Shown one piece after another: positions 36,977 through 46,661 of a stretch of DNA of 64,000 nt. Numbering within the stretch: the first letter of the stretch is position 1; every line of letters begins with the position of its first letter. The DNA comes from an uncultured Bacteroidota bacterium. GTDB taxonomy: Bacteria > Bacteroidota > Ignavibacteria > UBA10030 > UBA6906. Both the position numbers and the translations under genes were made by a program. The stretch spans positions 1,024,001-1,088,000 of the forward strand of contig CAVOYH010000003.1 in assembly GCA_963700635.1 (NCBI GenBank), written 5' to 3'. The notes under the pieces were generated by a model that ran no database searches, was not told the origin of the DNA, and saw nothing but the letters and a program-made list of their open reading frames with translations.

Positions 36977-38191
36977 ATGCGGACACCGATGAAGGTACTG
37001 ACCCTTTTCTGGTTTCTGATTCTGGTTCTCCTTGTCGCGGCAGGCCAGCCGCTGTATGCCCAGGGGGAGCTCGAGAAGCATCAGGATGAGCTCGAGTCCC
37101 TCCGCACACGGATCCGCGAACTGGAGGCGCGCAGCAAGGAACAGCAGAAGAATGAAACGGAAACCCTTGAGCTGCTCGACACCTACGATCATAAAGCGAC
37201 GCTTCTGCGCAAGCTCATCAGCCGCCTTAAAGCAGATGAGCGCCGTTTGCAGTCCCGCATAGACACCACGCGCCGCAGCACACGATCGTTGGAAGCCCAG
37301 CTCACATTTCTGAAAGATCACTTTGCCAGGTATGTGAGATCTGTCTACAAAGCCGGCCGGAGCCATGACGCCGAACTGCTTTTTGCTTCTTCATCCCTCG
37401 AGCAGTTTGTTGCGCGGAACGAATACCTCAGGCGTTTTAGTGAACAGCGTGTAAAGGACGCGCAGCGAATCCGGGCGAAACAGAAGGAGTATGAAGAAGT
37501 GCAGGCCCGCGCGGAAAAGGAGCTGAGCGAAGAACGCCGACTCCTCGCTGAAAAAGGCGCCGAAGAGGACCGGCTGGTTTCTCTTACGGCCGACCGCCGC
37601 GAGACACTTCTGCGGATTCGCAAAGACCAGAACCTGATCGCCCGGCAGATCCAGCGCCAGATGAAAGCCGCCCGCGAGATGGAACAATTGATAGCACGGC
37701 TTGTAGAATCCGAACGTGTGCGCAAAGAGCACGCGGCGGTGGACCGAAAGCTGCCGCGGACTCCCGAAGTGCCGCGCACAACCGGCCCGTTCGAACTCAA
37801 AAGAGGAAAACTCCCCTGGCCTGTGACAGAAGGGAGTATCGTTGCCCGCTTCGGTCCTCAGCGCCATCCGACACTGCGCACGGTGACGCAAAACACGGGT
37901 GTTGATATCGCTGTCCGTTCGGGCTCTCCCGTCACCGCCGTCGCATCCGGCGAAGTGGCCACCATCTGGTGGCTTCCCTCGTACGGCAACCTGATTATCC
38001 TGAATCATCAGGACGGATACCGGACGGTCTATACGCACCTTGCCGAAATCAACGTCGCGGAAGGGCAGACCATTGCTGAAGGGGAGATGTTAGGAGCCAG
38101 TGGTGATGCGCTGGACGGGCCCCGCCTGCATTTTGAAGTCTGGAAAGACCGCGAAAAACAGAATCCGGAACAATGGCTCACGCGACAATAA
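36977..38191 (+). CDS. envC: Murein hydrolase activator EnvC (coiled coil + degenerate M23)
   Basis: Long coiled coil; [32 protein letters not shown]...NPEQWL. Confidence 0.9.
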
Positions 38192-40821
38192 CACGACGCA
38201 CCATCCTGACTGTCGCCACCACAGCAGCTGTGGCTCTGCTCCTGGTGATCTTCCTCCGGACACCTATGGCGGTGCTGGAAGACGAGGTGACTACCCTCCG
38301 ATACCTGGTGCGCGGCGACCGCACTGCCGACACCAATATTGTGCTTGTGTACATTGATGAAGCCTCGGTGAAAGTGACGGGCTGGCCGGTACGGCGTAAC
38401 TTCCACGCCCTGATGCTGAAGGCCCTCACCGATCTGCGCGTCAGGGCCGTGGGCTGGGAACTCCTGCTCGAAGATCAACGCGTGGAATACCCGGAGTATG
38501 ACGATCTGCTTGCATCGGTACTGTCCACCTCATCACCCGTCGTGCTTACCTGCTATTTCGACTCGCTCGGGACTTCCCCGCCGCACCCGGATACAATCCT
38601 TGATTCCCTTCCCGTGCCATCGTATCCGGCAGTTGTGGCCCCTGTGATGCATGGGCACCGATTACATCTTCCCCTTGGCCAGTTTCGAGCGAATGCGGCA
38701 GGTATGGGACATGTGAACTTTACAGCAACGGGCCGGATTCCGGCGTTTGTGGGCTGGGAGGGCGCTGCAGTGCCGTCGTTCGGAACCGAGCTGGCGCGTG
38801 TCAGTGCGGATGTCGCGCGCGCTGGCGTACACTTCGACGGCAGGCGCGTAACTATGCGCCATGGTACGGCGTTCACAGCGTTTGAGACAAACGAAGAAGG
38901 CGAGGTGACGCTTTGTTATGCCGGACCCCTTTCCTCGTTCACGGCCATCTCTTTTCTTGAAGTTCTGCGCGCGTATGACATGGAGCGAACCGGCCTCCCC
39001 GCTCCACTTCCCGTATTGCGCCTGCGTGACAAGATTGTCCTGGTTGGGGTTGTGGCTGAAGGGCGCGGAGTCTTCTATGATACACCCGTGGATCCCCGTT
39101 TGCCCTCCCTCGGACTCCATGCAACATTCCTGGACAATGCACTGCACTCCGGATTCCTGAACCCGGTGAGCAACTGGATCGTTCTGTTGGCATCGGGTCT
39201 TCTTGCGTTTCTCTGCGCTGTGGCAGTGCTGCTCCTGCCTGCACCCCGTGACAAGGTGGTTCCTCTTCTTCTGATGGCTGGTGCTGTGGCACTGTCGTTC
39301 GCGCTCTTTGCCTGGTTCAGCATCATCCTCCCGGTGCTTCCGTTTCTTGTGGTGGGCGGTGCCGCATCGCTCTCGGGTCTGCTCGCCCGACATCGAATAG
39401 TCCGCGGTCAGGTGGATACCCTTGCTGCGGAAAAAGATGCCGTACTGGCCGATCTCCGTGACAGGGAAGCCAGACTCGACATGCTGGAACGTGAGCTTCT
39501 TGATTACCGGCAGGTACGGAGTGCCGACCGCACGCAGGAATTGCTTGAAGAGATCAGAAAACACAAAGCGGAAATCCGATCCCTTTCATCCCGGGCCGAC
39601 GACATGGTGGAATTTGCGCATCACCAGGCGGCTGACGAACGCGCGGAGTTTGAAGGAATGGTGTTTGCGAAGCACGGACCGATGAGTTCCGTTGTGGATT
39701 TTGTGGCGAAGGTGGCGTCGAGCAATGCGCCCGTGCTGATCCTCGGGGAAAGCGGAACAGGAAAAGAACTTGTTGCCCGTGCGATGCACCGCCGCAGCGC
39801 ACGATCGACCAAACCCTTTATTGCCGTAAACTGCGGCGCTCTGTCAGAGAGTCTTCTGGAGAGCGAGCTGTTCGGACACGAGAAGGGATCCTTCACGGGA
39901 GCTGTCAAAGACAAAATGGGGCGTTTTGAACTCGCCGACGGCGGGACAATCTTCCTGGACGAAATTGGAGAAGTATCCGACGGTTTTCAGGTGAAATTGC
40001 TGCGCGTGCTGCAGGAGGGGGAGGTGGAGCGTGTAGGCGGGACCCGCACACTCAGCCTCGATGTGCGTGTTGTAGCAGCGACGAACAAGAATCTGCGCGA
40101 ACTCGTAAAGGCGAAGAAATTCCGTGAAGACCTCTATTATCGCCTGAACGTCCTGACGGTATCTTTAACCCCTTTGAAAGAACGCCAGGATGACATTCCC
40201 CTCCTTCTTGCACACTTCCTTGCGCGCGAGGGAGAAGGCCTGCGCGTTTCGAAAAATGTGATGGAGGCCCTGCGGGAGCACCCCTGGCCGGGAAACGTCC
40301 GTGAGCTCGAGAGTGTCATCCGACGGGGGAGTGTGCTGGCGAAGGCGGAACGGCGGGATCTGATTCATCTCCAAGACCTGCCGCCAGAAGTTGCCGAGGC
40401 GGTAAAAGGAAAAGTTCCGGTGCAGGAACAGATTCTGGACACGATGAGGGAGTATGGCTTCTCACGCAGCGCAGTATCGGAAACCGCCGCCGGACTGGGT
40501 GGTCTCAACCGCGGGACGGTTGCAGAATATCTCCGGGGGGAGTTCCTGAAAGCGTTTGCCGAACATCAGTTTGACCTTGAAAAGGCGGTATTGCACATTT
40601 CACTCTCATCAGATCCTGCTGTGAACGAACGGGTCCGCAAACGATATGTTGATTACCTCCGGAACATAGCCGAGGGTATGGAAACGTCACGCCCCTGGGA
40701 GGATGTCCGGGGCAGCTTGAAACCCAAAACAAAAAATCTTCCTCAACGGTATCATCTCTTCCTGGAACAGGTTGCAGAGGCATTTTTCCGCAGGCTCTGG
40801 AGTCTACCCCCGACTGCCTGA
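38173..40821 (+). CDS. Membrane-bound sigma54 enhancer-binding protein with an extracytoplasmic CHASE2 sensor domain
   Basis: TM; CHASE2 ([10 protein letters not shown]...GWPVRR...DKIVLVG...YDTP...[10 protein letters not shown]); 3 TM; coiled coil; [53 protein letters not shown]-like segment plus extension. Confidence 0.92.
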
Positions 40822-40831
40822 ACCTGTCCAC

Positions 40832-45787: not shown

Positions 45788-45806
45788 GGCGCATGAGAGA
45801 CCGGGC

Positions 45807-46661
45807 ATGCTCCAGAGCCCCATGGTGTGTTCTGCACTGCTTGCGTGCCTGTTGACAGCTTCTCTGCCGACCGTATCGCAGATTCTTGCCATTTCACCGC
45901 GTCCCTCAGATGCCGCCGATGGTGATTCATTTGGCGCGCTGGTTGTATCCCTGCCTCGCGCGCAACGCGAGGAATCTGTTTTTCAGGAGGTGATGAAGGG
46001 GAACATCCCGCAGTTTCTCCGAAGGTTGGTTCCGATCACATCGCGGACGTCCATTGGCGGAACCGAACACACGCTGGTGTGGCATGTACTTCCTGACTAT
46101 CTCGCCATCGGGTCAGACGATAACTACATCCTGATGCCGATGACGCCGGTGCTCGCACAACGGCTGGCCGACACCCTCCGCTGTACTCTCCCGACGCGGA
46201 ACATGGTTGATACGATCTACAAGCACGCAAGGGTAAAACTCGCCCCTCAGCCGATCCCACCCGGTGAAGCGATGACAACGCTCCGCGTATTCACGCAACA
46301 CAACGATAGCATCCGTATCCGCCGTACGGCGTTGCTGAAACAGCATCCTCTTGGCGAGCTGGTGGGCGGCCACAAAAAGGACGTCATCATCTCCAACGCC
46401 ATCGTCTCAGGTGTACGGCCCGCTGCCCCGAAACCGGTCGTGATTTATGGGTGGCATCAGCTTGATGGTGTTCCCATTCAGCCGCTGTACAACGGTCACG
46501 GTGAAACGTACGCGGATTACAGCCACGGGATTCGACTCGTGCAGGACACCATGATGCTGGATGGAGTACCGGTGACGGCTGCGTCCATTCTCACCGATCA
46601 GACACTCTGGCCGTTGTTGAGTGACGAGGGGCAGATTCTGCTTCCCCGGTACGGACCCTGA
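45807..46661 (+). CDS. Exported hypothetical protein, His-rich candidate active site
   Basis: Signal peptide; PDYLAIGSD, LPTRNMVD, GHKKD, IYGWH, IQPLY..H...YADYSHG. Confidence 0.8.
   Translation: MLQSPMVCSALLACLLTASLPTVSQILAISPRPSDAADGDSFGALVVSLPRAQREESVFQEVMKGNIPQFLRRLVPITSRTSIGGTEHTLVWHVLPDYLAIGSDDNYILMPMTPVLAQRLADTLRCTLPTRNMVDTIYKHARVKLAPQPIPPGEAMTTLRVFTQHNDSIRIRRTALLKQHPLGELVGGHKKDVIISNAIVSGVRPAAPKPVVIYGWHQLDGVPIQPLYNGHGETYADYSHGIRLVQDTMMLDGVPVTAASILTDQTLWPLLSDEGQILLPRYGP

Follow-up and report, generated by a model that had tools for sequence, protein, structure and literature searches.

A putative envelope module with a CHASE2-sigma-54 activator recurs in the Ignavibacteria

The window, a stretch of 64,000 nt from a contig of an uncultured Bacteroidota bacterium, contains a run of six co-oriented genes in the 38173..46661 region, with three further genes upstream on the same strand. 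The genes and features of the locus are as follows.

34461..38191, + strand: g01-g03, a TPR protein, a DUF4292/LolB-like protein and a coiled-coil M23 peptidase
38173..40821, + strand: g04, a fusion of an inner-membrane CHASE2 sensor with a sigma-54 AAA+ activator (Pfam)
40832..40894, + strand: enhancer-like element (upstream activating sequence) of four TCCCGCA(C) direct repeats
40958..40972, + strand: sigma-54-type -24/-12 promoter, TGGCACagcgaTTGA, from reading of the sequence and conservation
41058..42038, + strand: lipo1, lipoprotein of no known family with lipobox FIAGC, two beta-sandwich domains and short helices
42042..42110, + strand: GC-rich long hairpin, immediately past the lipo1 stop codon
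42178..43056, + strand: lipo2, lipoprotein with lipobox LVAGC, no known family
43059..45071, + strand: g07, signal peptide, PorV/PorQ-like outer membrane barrel (~20-345), middle domain (~350-470) and transglutaminase/LapG-like domain (~480-670)
45083..45787, + strand: g08, signal peptide, beta domain (27-93), helix (102-116), disordered linker and TPR domain (150-238), with residues counted from the ORF start at 45068
45807..46661, + strand: g09, exported protein of no known family, adjacent to and outside the conserved module

All six ORFs proposed as a unit by the initial annotation are present, yet the core of the module is five genes, not six: g04, lipo1, lipo2, g07 and g08, an envelope gene set which, judged from the loci compared, recurs throughout the class Ignavibacteria. 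The sixth gene, g09, lies outside the unit, being found beside g08 in 7/80 loci (2/20 in another locus set), and gave no Pfam or NCBIfam match. On gene order, g01-g03 (identified from Pfam and NCBIfam matches) are order-specific, non-core neighbours. They are found in synteny in most loci from the order to which the window belongs, with the g03 stop codon here overlapping the start of g04, and core membership was ruled out by their absence from 7/7 sister-order loci and by loci in which they are missing upstream of g04 (L087 and L114) or placed downstream of g08 (L083).

Linkage of the remaining genes was assessed in 80 fetched loci, where g04 adjoins g07 in 61; of the other 19, 16 stop at a contig edge, and the last three (L051, L053 and L055) keep the repeats and promoter and have g04-like genes elsewhere in their genomes. 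Both g07 and g04 were present in 7/7 sister-order genomes despite rearrangements and identities of ~27% for g07 and 33–36% for full-length g04. The two genes are adjacent in six of these seven, g04 occupying the opposite flank and strand in two cases, and g04 is located elsewhere in the seventh genome. Of the own-order genomes in a phylum sample of 401, 13 had a g07 profile match at E ≤ 1e-258, and exactly these 13 also gave g04-type matches. The downstream genes of the core co-occur with the CHASE2 activator, as the proposal of the initial annotation requires, with the qualification that all compared loci come from one class, so that shared ancestry inflates the counts. This shared ancestry, and the order-wide synteny which g01-g03 display without core membership, could also fit genes that are neighbours by descent only, with the activator controlling something else and the adjacency having no functional meaning. 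We consider this very improbable, as the linkage survives rearrangement (g04 is found on both sides and strands, and where it is remote, lipo1 still has the repeats and promoter), the repeat cluster described below occurs nowhere else in the genome, and the predicted complex of g08 with the CHASE2 domain passes its controls.

By its predicted architecture, g04 is an inner-membrane one-component regulator, in agreement with the original proposal, and matches the Pfam families CHASE2 (E 3.6e-32), Sigma54_activat (E 9.4e-71) and AAA_lid_14 (E 1.1e-18). An N-terminal transmembrane helix is followed by the periplasmic CHASE2 domain (~29-346), three transmembrane helices (~345-420), a coiled-coil linker (~420-495), the AAA+ domain (500-747) and a conserved HTH-like C-terminus; the assignment of transmembrane helices and coiled coil comes from inspection of the sequence, and residues 751-882 gave no HTH match in Pfam. 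Alignment of 30 orthologues showed invariant GESGTGKE, ELFGHEKG(A/S)FTGA loop and Walker B motifs, as well as a further conserved segment of 27 protein letters. The rpoN gene is present in the genome.

The TCCCGCA sites start at 40832, 40853, 40862 and 40888, with the first pair 21 bp apart and beginning 11 nt past the g04 stop codon, and form the sole such cluster in the 4.2-Mb genome. Downstream, the TGGCACagcgaTTGA promoter precedes the lipo1 start codon by 86 nt and has TTGA rather than TTGC as its -12 element, and repeats and promoter together span 40832-40972. The frequency of the -24/-12 motif in the window alone is not above chance (3 matches versus 1.14 expected, with at least 3 in 12/100 shuffles), and the promoter is taken as real because of its conservation across related loci, not because of this count. 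The motif TGGCAY-N5-TTGN was found near lipo1 in 57/61 related loci, of which 44 also have a half-site pair 21–22 bp apart, 60–135 nt upstream of the -24 element; in the first locus set it was present in 17/17 intergenic regions (13 strict matches and 4 by reading). The sequence of the half-sites varies by lineage, with TTCAGGCA or TTCCATGCA pairs in the sister orders, while the 21–22 bp spacing is constant. These data bear out the enhancer-like repeats and promoter ahead of lipo1, and with the downstream envelope genes they make up a unit kept across related loci. We regard this regulatory core, with a putative sigma-54 promoter at lipo1 under g04 control, as highly probable.

Both predicted lipoproteins carry lipoboxes. 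The true start of lipo1 is at 41058 (MKAS...FIAGC) instead of 40980, with Gly-Cys at least 90% conserved in 31 relatives, and that of lipo2 is at 42178 (..LVAGC), with the Cys invariant in 30 relatives. No Pfam or NCBIfam match was obtained for either protein. The AlphaFold2 model of lipo1 (pLDDT 85.9) matches generic beta-sandwich folds only (Foldseek best E 4.7e-4, TM 0.21; VIA-align best Z 5.9), and lipo2 retrieved only clusters of hypothetical proteins from Bacteroidota/Ignavibacteriota in the ESM Atlas. A paralogous relationship of lipo2 with lipo1 was rejected, as the hhalign alignment is limited to the signal peptide. The hairpin between both genes has a minimum free energy of -59.2 kcal/mol (z -3.58), with 0/200 shuffles folding equally well, and 45/55 sequences (54 related loci plus the window) have a hairpin of 9 bp or more at the same position. 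A T-rich tail follows in 20/55, the window's hairpin having none. The hairpin is a candidate attenuator, terminator or RNA-stabilising element, and may end transcription after lipo1; if it is a terminator, transcription of lipo2, g07 and g08 may be independent of sigma-54, which would break the feedback loop proposed below.

The window g07 matches NCBIfam PorV_fam over residues 26-197 (E 7.1e-9, 35.7 bits versus a curated cut-off of 90) and Pfam Transglut_core over residues 514-590 (E 0.0023, below cut-off), and both models match 18 of the 19 family members (best E 6.3e-20 and 3.1e-5, respectively). Other NCBIfam matches among these 19 were T9SS_OM_PorV (8), PorQ (3), PorP (2) and LapG (1). 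Profile searches of the PDB gave PorV (6h3i_F, E 2.8e-6), and weak LapG matches to 4u65_E (E 0.0023) and 4fgo_A (E 0.05) aligned on the GDC(D/E)D motif. All of 19 relatives and 7 sister-order sequences have C556, H589 and E630; D595 is not conserved. An outer membrane barrel with a Cys-His-Glu domain, as initially described, is thus upheld, and since this domain is placed after a complete PorV-like barrel, the C-terminal half probably faces the periplasm. The barrel being PorV-like, a role as TonB-dependent transducer was rejected.

The PorV, PorQ and PorP matches, and a paralogue of the C-terminal half of g07 adjoining a T9SS sorting-tail protein in another genome, would also suit a type IX secretion-related device, in which g07 acts like PorV-PorU in processing or anchoring cargo or lipoproteins at the surface and g04 merely regulates. 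This is improbable, given that the window g07 scores 35.7 bits where PorV_fam demands 90, that its enzyme domain is transglutaminase/LapG-like and unlike the gingipain-like PorU in fold, that this domain is expected in the periplasm, and that lipo1, lipo2, g08 and g09 contained no T9SS C-terminal sorting domain.

The tightest pair of the module is g07 and g08, with g08 next after g07 in 79/80 loci; only 11 nt, holding AGGAGG, separate the g07 stop codon from the ATG at 45083, the likely start of g08 (its ORF opens at 45068). The model of g08 (pLDDT 84.1) contains signal peptide, beta domain, helix and TPR domain, and VIA-align matched it to 5ix9 (Z 8.3 over 73 residues, rmsd 2.9) and to TPR domains (Z 8–9). 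The description of g08 as FecR-like was not supported: Pfam FecR matched 0/31 members, and similarity to a true FecR-domain family was confined to the first ~45 residues, which hhalign placed on its N-terminal portion at 89% probability. The NCBIfam model retention_LapA matched 20/31 members at E ≤ 1 (best E 3.3e-6), with all scores seen below the curated cut-off (13.7 bits versus 50 for the window g08), and on these profiles the beta domain weakly resembles LapA-type retention modules. Of 323 g08 relatives, the best 150 were all small proteins and included no adhesins. The linker, modelled at low confidence, contains a conserved (I/L)P-N-(A/T)-(A/T/G)-V-V-H-G motif at 128-136 and has a conserved small-residue pair at mature position ~107-108, which is di-alanine in only 9/31 members and T-A in the sister orders. 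Cleavage of LapA is described at 108AA109 and of DvhA at 106AA107 (PMC10990149).

Modelling of g08 with the CHASE2 domain gave ipSAE values of 0.85, 0.84 and 0.85 versus 0.00 for the best control, with the runs sharing at least 79% of contacts and a partner pLDDT of at least 80. Here ipSAE expresses model confidence with our own alignments and is not a measurement, and owing to these alignments the calibration (mark reached by 116/157 solved complexes and 2/215 mismatched pairs) holds only roughly. The predicted contacts of g08 on CHASE2 are made by the central helix (102-119) and the TPR domain (204-211). Residues at least 90% conserved make up 12/19 of the interface versus 71/318 overall in g04 (p 9e-5), and 8/20 versus 46/215 in g08 (p 0.04). 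On this model, binding of g08 to the CHASE2 domain of g04 is somewhat favoured. Of the outside-in relay from barrel via FecR-like adaptor to CHASE2 that was originally envisaged, the contact between g08 and CHASE2 is thus retained as a prediction, whereas the adaptor fails Pfam FecR and the barrel is not a TonB-dependent transducer. Signalling may run outside-in or as feedback from an operon product.

An open-loop arrangement would account for the same genes if CHASE2 senses a cue unrelated to the operon products, with two lipoproteins, a barrel-enzyme and a TPR adaptor forming an outer membrane complex for envelope repair, remodelling or nutrient handling, and g08 serving only g07. Consistent with this are the tight g07-g08 pair (79/80 loci, 11 nt apart), the position of the module behind LolB-like and M23 envelope genes in its own order, and the FecR-domain and TPR proteins that Sinorhizobium meliloti CHASE2 cyclases induce via the CHASE2/Clr pathway, which are described as dispensable for signal perception (PMC5498481). 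Against it stand the complex prediction (0.85 versus 0.00), with an interface on the most conserved residues of both proteins, and the recurrent clustering of CHASE2 genes with FecR-like and TPR proteins in other phyla and in the window's genome, where a Pfam FecR protein is encoded two genes upstream of a CHASE2 cyclase in the same orientation. We judge the open-loop arrangement possible but the less likely option.

The best overall explanation, with a probability of about 0.5, is a five-gene envelope module with a g04-driven operon that feeds back on its own sensor. In this feedback module, g04 would bind the direct repeats 21 bp apart just past its own stop codon, and from there activate the sigma-54 promoter ~100 nt downstream, which would drive lipo1 and, by read-through of the conserved hairpin, also lipo2, g07 and g08. 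Exported g08 would then bind CHASE2 via its central helix (102-119) and TPR domain (204-211), and this predicted binding is what would close the loop, with g08 as protein ligand of the sensor, presumably much as CpxP acts on CpxA or PspA on PspF. The most likely input would be the outer membrane-tethered protease domain of g07, which may cut g08 in the conserved linker separating its two contact sites, thereby signalling the condition of the outer envelope, although cleavage of g08 by g07 is itself a tentative and rather unlikely part of the scheme. If correct, the module may show how the poorly understood CHASE2 type of sensor gets its signal.

Several known systems share parts of this arrangement. 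Like the NtrC1/DctD/PspF-type enhancer-binding proteins, g04 has an AAA+ sigma-54 interaction domain with a GAFTGA-type loop, and upstream repeats are located ~100 nt from a -24/-12 promoter; the coiled-coil linker ahead of the AAA+ domain is also found in NtrC1 and DctD. In contrast to these proteins, g04 lacks receiver, GAF or PAS domains and a Pfam HTH_8 match, its sites are direct repeats right behind its own gene, and it has a periplasmic CHASE2 domain as input, linked by four transmembrane helices, which would make the activator membrane-integral. Shared with PorV/PorQ/BamG-type Bacteroidota barrels is the N-terminal part of g07 (345 residues), which matches PorV_fam and can be aligned to both termini of PorV; its scores stay under the curated cut-off, and g07 has in addition an enzyme-like extension of 320 residues. 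With FecA/FecR/FecI the module shares the idea of an envelope-spanning relay ending at an alternative sigma factor, but it has no TonB-dependent transducer, ECF sigma factor or membrane-spanning anti-sigma factor, and g08 fails Pfam FecR.

Compared with the LapD/LapG/LapA retention module system and its Desulfovibrio Dvh variant, as described in PMC10990149, g07 has the transglutaminase-like Cys protease motif GDC(D/E)D, g08 has a retention-module-like N-terminus and, beyond it, a helix plus two small residues at ~mature 107-108, and g04 resembles LapD as an inner-membrane protein whose periplasmic domain binds (for g04, is predicted to bind) one of the protease/substrate pair. However, the protease-like domain is fused to an outer membrane barrel, unlike LapG; g08 is a Sec-exported, TPR-ended protein of 234 aa, whereas LapA is a giant T1SS adhesin; the predicted partner of g04 is the substrate-like g08 and not the protease; the output is transcription rather than c-di-GMP-controlled adhesin release; and the family scores are below curated cut-offs.

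The initial view that no such system had been described was too strong. In S. meliloti, NsrA acts via CyaD1/CyaD2/CyaK on Clr, with a protein as signal (PMC13001267, PMC5498481), so that an outer membrane beta-barrel upstream of CHASE2 cyclases is already published (PMC13001267), a comparison of barrel role and not of homology, and the Clr regulon includes exported FecR-domain and TPR proteins (PMC5498481); signalling in that pathway ends in cAMP and a CRP-type regulator (PMC13001267, PMC5498481). CHASE2 adenylate cyclases of Campylobacterota cluster with FecR-domain and TPR genes (PMC9239204), and the Burkholderia BiofilmReg histidine kinase operon combines CHASE2 with a LysM/FecR protein and a DUF4136 lipoprotein (PMC5192318). 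A sigma-54 output for such CHASE2 clusters was not found in print. The module shares with these clusters a CHASE2 sensor gene beside exported beta-domain, TPR and lipoprotein partners (PMC9239204, PMC5192318), and differs in having a sigma-54 AAA+ output instead of a cyclase or kinase, a g08 that lacks Pfam FecR proper and carries its own TPR, and additionally the barrel-tethered protease-like domain of g07.

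The gene g04 encodes a CHASE2 sensor joined to a sigma-54 AAA+ activator, and is followed in the window by two lipoprotein genes (lipo1 and lipo2), a gene for a barrel protein with an enzyme-like C-terminal domain (g07), a gene for a small exported protein with a beta domain, a helix and TPR-like repeats (g08), and a further exported protein gene (g09). The features to which we refer are located as follows.

Features of the locus (window coordinates)
38173-40821: g04, 882 aa, co-oriented with the downstream ORFs
40832-40894: four TCCCGCA sites, the first pair 21 bp apart and beginning 11 nt past the g04 stop
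40958-40972: -24/-12 motif TGGCACagcgaTTGA, 86 nt upstream of the lipo1 start
41058: true start of lipo1, lipobox FIAGC
42042-42110: GC-rich long hairpin directly 3′ of the lipo1 stop (z -3.58)
42178: true start of lipo2, lipobox LVAGC
43059-45071: g07, whose signal peptide is followed by a PorV-like half and, C-terminally, by a transglutaminase-like part
45083: likely ATG start of g08, with AGGAGG upstream
45807-46661: g09, exported, 284 aa, no family match

The N-terminal part of g04 matches CHASE2 at residues 21-344 (PF05226, E 3.6e-32, 112.4 bits against a cut-off of 26.3), and residues 500-663 match the sigma-54 activator domain (PF00158, E 9.4e-71, 237 bits against a cut-off of 20.2), with an AAA+ lid in addition. 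Hydrophobic segments read from the sequence lie at residues ~10-28 (one helix before CHASE2) and ~345-420 (three helices after it), and a coiled-coil stretch of ~75 residues separates the last transmembrane helix from the AAA+ domain. In an alignment of 30 orthologues the GESGTGKE, G(A/S)FTGA and Walker B DE motifs are invariant or nearly so, and a conserved helix-turn-helix-like segment is visible at the C-terminus, where no Pfam family, including any HTH model, matched residues 751-882 at E ≤ 0.1. Judged by these sequence features, g04 has the sigma-54-interacting AAA+ domain, and its N-terminus is that of a CHASE2 sensor, both in its Pfam score and in having one N-terminal and three C-terminal transmembrane helices. 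The genome also encodes RpoN (Sigma54_DBD, E 3.7e-56), and 18 of the 23 sigma-54 activator matches listed are strong (E ≤ 1e-20). As a membrane-integral sigma-54 enhancer-binding protein with predicted binding sites directly behind its own gene, g04 makes one ask by what route an AAA+ ring can form at the membrane and gain access to its promoter.

The g07 profile retrieved 326 stretches with a relative from the species-genome collection, of which the best 80 were kept; record titles among these loci name Ignavibacteria, Ignavibacteriota, Bacteroidota and 'Chlorobi' genome bins, including an Ignavibacterium album bin (L087, 41% identity), and the comparative counts given here all derive from a single class. 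In 79 of the best 80 of these 326 loci g08 follows g07, the exception being at a contig edge. The initial annotation had proposed conservation of the neighbours and of a -24/-12 site as a check, and this was largely borne out, with g04 adjoining the operon in 61 of the best 80 of 326 loci and a TGGCAY-N5-TTGN element near lipo1 in 57 of these 61. Of the other 19 loci, 16 begin at lipo1, lipo2 or g07, or no more than 0.4 kb from one of them. The remaining three (L051, L053 and L055) extend at least 3 kb further upstream and lack g04 there; they retain both the repeat pair and the promoter motif in front of lipo1, and belong to genomes that carry g04-like genes on other contigs. Seven loci from sister orders of the class, with g07 ~27% identical to that of the window, have a full-length g04 (33-36% identity) adjacent in six cases, on the far side and opposite strand in two of these, and elsewhere in the genome in the seventh; g08 was detected in six of the seven and lipo2 in three. 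In a sample of 401 genomes of the phylum, full-length g07 was found in the window's own order, three more families of the class and one other genome, and beyond these groups only as the barrel alone or as the C-terminal half in other proteins. A phylum-wide search with the CHASE2 part (E ≤ 1e-15) found the sister-order g04 in only 1 of 19 same-class genomes with a full-length g07-like gene; since tblastn on the fetched sister-order loci recovered g04 in 7/7, this tally understates its range. Because of the synteny across the fetched and sister-order loci, the core of the module is g04, lipo1, (lipo2), g07 and g08.

This core retains most of the six-gene unit originally proposed and leaves out g09, which was dropped as a member as it lies beside the module in only 7 of the best 80 of 326 loci. 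Upstream, g04 is preceded by three genes (g01-g03, 34461-38191) for a TPR protein, a DUF4292/LolB1-like protein and a coiled-coil EnvC-like M23 peptidase, with the g03 stop overlapping the g04 start by 19 nt. Most loci of the window's own order share these three genes in synteny, but they are not upstream of g04 in L087 and L114 and lie downstream of g08 in L083; they were dropped from the core because they are absent from all seven sister-order loci. The arrangement points to the sensor being transcribed together with genes for envelope biogenesis in the window's own order alone. The module occurs across Ignavibacteria, including the I. album bin, and may thus be testable in cultured relatives.

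The placement of lipo1 behind enhancer-like repeats and a -24/-12 promoter, as initially annotated, holds on comparative grounds, the window's own motif counts being near chance: the promoter motif has 3 matches against 1.14 expected, which is not above chance, and the octamer TCCCGCAC has 5 matches against 3.47 expected, three of the five within 64 bp. A pair of CCSGCR half-sites lies 60-135 nt (median 103.5) upstream of the TGGCAY-N5-TTGN element in 44 of the 61 loci with adjoining g04, spaced by 21 bp in 40 and by 22 bp in four. In the sister orders the half-site reads TTCAGGCA or TTCCATGCA, likewise present as two direct copies 21-22 bp apart upstream of a TGGCAC element, and such drift in half-site sequence within a kept layout would be expected of a real pair of binding site and regulator. 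The four-site TCCCGCA cluster is unique within the 4.2-Mb genome, which suggests that its regulator is local and dedicated. A dedicated, membrane-integral sigma-54 activator that probably drives an outer-envelope operon from its own enhancer and promoter is the best-supported part of our interpretation.

Upstream of lipo1 in L145-L151 the half-site varies by lineage (TCCCGCAC, TTCAGGCA or TTCCATGCA) with spacing and distance to TGGCAC kept, and these lineage-variable half-sites provide a natural set for mapping the DNA-recognition residues of the g04 C-terminus. In six loci (L042, L052, L056, L046, L071 and L072) 1.1-5.9 kb is inserted after g04, and the repeats and promoter remain with lipo1; in five others (L083, L084, L085, L095 and L101) the promoter stays behind g04, with 0.4-1.9 kb, possibly containing an extra gene, to lipo1. 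Further TGGCAY-N5-TTG matches in the window are at 61195-61208 (reverse strand) and 62658-62671 (forward strand), and a Sigma54_activat-like fragment (model positions 136-167, E 5.7e-6) is located at 61808-61903 (reverse strand), within an open frame of 257 aa. A scan for sigma-70-type promoters gave 2 promoter-like sites against 3.9 expected.

The hairpin directly behind lipo1 is conserved, with at least 9 bp at that site in 45 of 55 sequences (54 related loci and the window); a T-rich tail is present in 20/55, the window copy being without one. This conserved hairpin raises the possibility that lipo1 is the main sigma-54 product, with the downstream genes expressed via read-through or from their own promoter. 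The terminator scan gave 15 weak terminator-like sites against 8.2 expected, none of them after g04 or g08, and an Rfam search over 36000-48000 gave no matches. A TTGAWWWT-like word follows the hairpin in 24 of the 55 sequences, 12-76 nt before the lipo2 start.

By sequence, lipo1 and lipo2 are both lipoproteins, each having a signal peptide and, at its end, a lipobox whose cysteine is conserved (family alignments: G21 and C22 of lipo1 at least 90% conserved, C18 of lipo2 invariant). They were rejected as paralogues, as their alignment is confined to the signal peptides. The lipo1 model (pLDDT 85.9) comprises short helices and two beta-sandwich domains, and its structural relatives were generic beta-sandwiches only, none of them specific. 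A sequence-profile search of the PDB with lipo1, lipo2 and g08 gave nothing below E 0.1, the top row for lipo1 ('Bam M', E 0.16) covering the signal peptide region, and the ESM Atlas returned only unnamed Ignavibacteriota/Bacteroidota clusters for lipo2.

The barrel half of g07 resembles PorV: PorV_fam (NF033709) matches 18/19 family members (best E 6.3e-20), with the window's g07 at 35.7 bits against a curated cut-off of 90, and the g07 profile finds PorV in the PDB (6h3i_F, E 2.8e-6) with both ends of the barrel covered. Because the enzyme-like half comes after a complete PorV-like barrel, we infer that it faces the periplasm. Transglut_core matches 18/19 family members (best E 3.1e-5), and the Cys-His-Glu domain that the initial annotation had noticed in the barrel protein was confirmed, with C556 (in GGDCDD), H589 and E630 invariant in 19 own-order and 7 sister-order sequences, among which D595 is not invariant. 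As far as can be read from these alignments, the C-terminus has the Cys-His-acid triad of a transglutaminase-like core. The NCBIfam model CystProtLapG matches 1/19 family members (E 3.9e-4), and the g07 profile aligns on GDC(D/E)D with 4u65_E (E 0.0023) and 4fgo_A (E 0.05), two small periplasmic cysteine proteases which we take to be LapG. With residues 350-670 the ESM Atlas gave a Transglut_core cluster and nothing beyond Pfam. A paralogue of this C-terminal half from another genome (27% identical over residues 325-670) forms part of an 824-aa protein without the PorV-like barrel (L035, 2119-4593, reverse strand); its neighbours are CsgG/LpoB-like lipoproteins and a protein of 1480 aa that carries a T9SS sorting tail, and similar proteins of ~670-870 aa are present in several families of the phylum. 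Such paralogues were rejected as a functional guide, since the one examined lies in a different gene context.

In the g08 model (pLDDT 84.1; residues counted from the ORF start at 45068) the signal peptide is followed by a beta domain at 27-93 and a helix at 102-116; a linker modelled with low confidence (120-145) then leads to three TPR-like repeats at 150-238. The description of g08 as FecR-like was not upheld, as Pfam FecR (PF04773) matched 0/31 family members at E ≤ 1 and a FecR scan of the genome (E ≤ 10) gave no match at g08; this genome's true FecR family aligns with g08 at residues 31-74 only, and there through the stretch that precedes its FecR domain (hhalign probability 89%, E 2e-6). 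The LapA-type retention module NF033682 matches 20/31 family members at E ≤ 1 (best E 3.3e-6), with the window's g08 at 13.7 bits against a curated cut-off of 50, and in structural comparison the beta domain matches 5ix9 (Z 8.3, rmsd 2.9 over 73 of 76 residues), a suggestive likeness rather than a membership. The linker carries the motif (I/L)P-N-(A/T)-(A/T/G)-V-V-H-G, with G136 invariant and H135 in 28/31 members (T-A-V-Y-G in the sister orders). In the window it contains 131AA132, at mature position ~107-108; the di-alanine occurs in 9/31 members, and a pair of small residues is conserved.

Complex prediction of CHASE2 (29-346) with mature g08 gave ipSAE values of 0.85, 0.84 and 0.85, against 0.00 for the best of three controls, in line with the CHASE2-adaptor pairing for which the initial annotation had proposed such modelling. 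At least 79% of contacts are shared between the runs, with partner pLDDT of at least 80, and the mark used was reached by 116/157 solved complexes and 2/215 mismatched pairs, counts that are only approximate for CHASE2-g08, for which own alignments were used. No solved CHASE2 complex is known to us, and it therefore seems improbable that the predictor merely reproduced a structure it had met in training. The predicted interface comprises g08 residues 102-119 and 204-211 and g04 residues 64-83, 105-116 and 262-269, and is enriched in positions at least 90% conserved, both in g04 (12/19 residues versus 71/318 overall, p 9e-5) and in g08 (8/20 versus 46/215, p 0.04). Binding of g08 to CHASE2 is thus predicted from one controlled prediction, whose score expresses model confidence, together with conservation. 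The available text of PMC5192318 describes the signal sensed by CHASE2 domains as still unknown, and a conserved, co-encoded periplasmic protein with named contact residues offers a concrete protein-ligand hypothesis for such a domain.

If g08 binds CHASE2, the operon would feed back on its own sensor. A serious rival is an open-loop arrangement in which the operon products do not signal; it would share the sigma-54-driven operon, and the predicted contact and its conserved residues point instead to signalling by g08. The outside-in relay of the initial annotation, from barrel through a FecR-like adaptor to CHASE2 and sigma-54, is one version of signalling through g07, g08 and CHASE2. The version we propose is a Lap-like proteolytic switch wired to transcription, to which we give about one chance in four. 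The conserved linker motif sits between the two predicted contact surfaces of g08, and the barrel-tethered, LapG-like domain of g07 would cut g08 there; cleavage would set the CHASE2 sensor, and in this way information on the condition of the outer envelope would cross the periplasm and reach a membrane-integral sigma-54 activator. Cutting of g08 by g07 is the boldest step, and draws on weak family resemblances and the conserved motif. If true, the switch would provide the first defined protein ligand of CHASE2 and the first trans-envelope proteolytic input to sigma-54.

A Fec-type cell-surface signalling system comprises a TonB-dependent transducer, a membrane-spanning anti-sigma factor and an ECF sigma factor, whereas here g07 is PorV-like, g08 has a signal peptide only and a scan of 12 genes around the cluster gave no domain of the sigma-70 family, and we therefore rejected this reading. 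A sigma-54 output for CHASE2 was not found in the literature searched, and CHASE2 and NtrC are named only as separate domains in the accessible part of PMC1592074. From the accessible text of the respective papers, the genes of Campylobacterota CHASE2 adenylate cyclases are grouped with genes for a FecR-domain and a TPR protein (PMC9239204), a Burkholderia operon encodes a histidine kinase with CHASE2 together with a LysM/FecR and a DUF4136 protein (PMC5192318), and the CHASE2 cyclases of Sinorhizobium meliloti perceive a plant protein via the outer-membrane barrel NsrA (PMC13001267), with FecR-domain and TPR proteins in their regulon that are dispensable for perception (PMC5498481). The window's own genome has two CHASE2 cyclases. 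The first (L116, G000:C3:812000-824000) lies two genes downstream of a Pfam FecR protein on the same strand, the order being a 353-aa protein without assignment, the FecR protein (233 aa), an 804-aa protein without assignment and the CHASE2 adenylate cyclase; a divergent gene for a UPF0164/DUF5723 PorV-like barrel adjoins, and an M50 site-2 protease gene is upstream. The second (L117, G000:C4:745000-756000), with a C-terminal TPR, neighbours an OMP_b-brl protein, an SH3/M48 peptidase, a WD40 protein with a CsgG-like end and an LPP20-like lipoprotein. Taken together, the published clusters and this genome's cyclase cluster make CHASE2 with a beta-domain partner, a TPR protein and a barrel a recurrent theme.

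In the Lap-type systems, as described in the available text of PMC10990149, LapG cuts LapA at 108AA109, downstream of the retention module, and DvhG cuts DvhA at 106AA107. In contrast to the N-terminus of a large T1SS adhesin of the LapA type, g08 is a protein of 234-239 aa with a Sec-type signal peptide; its family forms 323 representative clusters, and the best 150 of these 323 relatives include no adhesins, all being small (84-259 aa). With a LapG-like domain on a PorV-like barrel and, encoded next to it, a small protein that has the form of a LapG substrate, periplasmic proteolysis of the Lap type would reach further than the release of adhesins.
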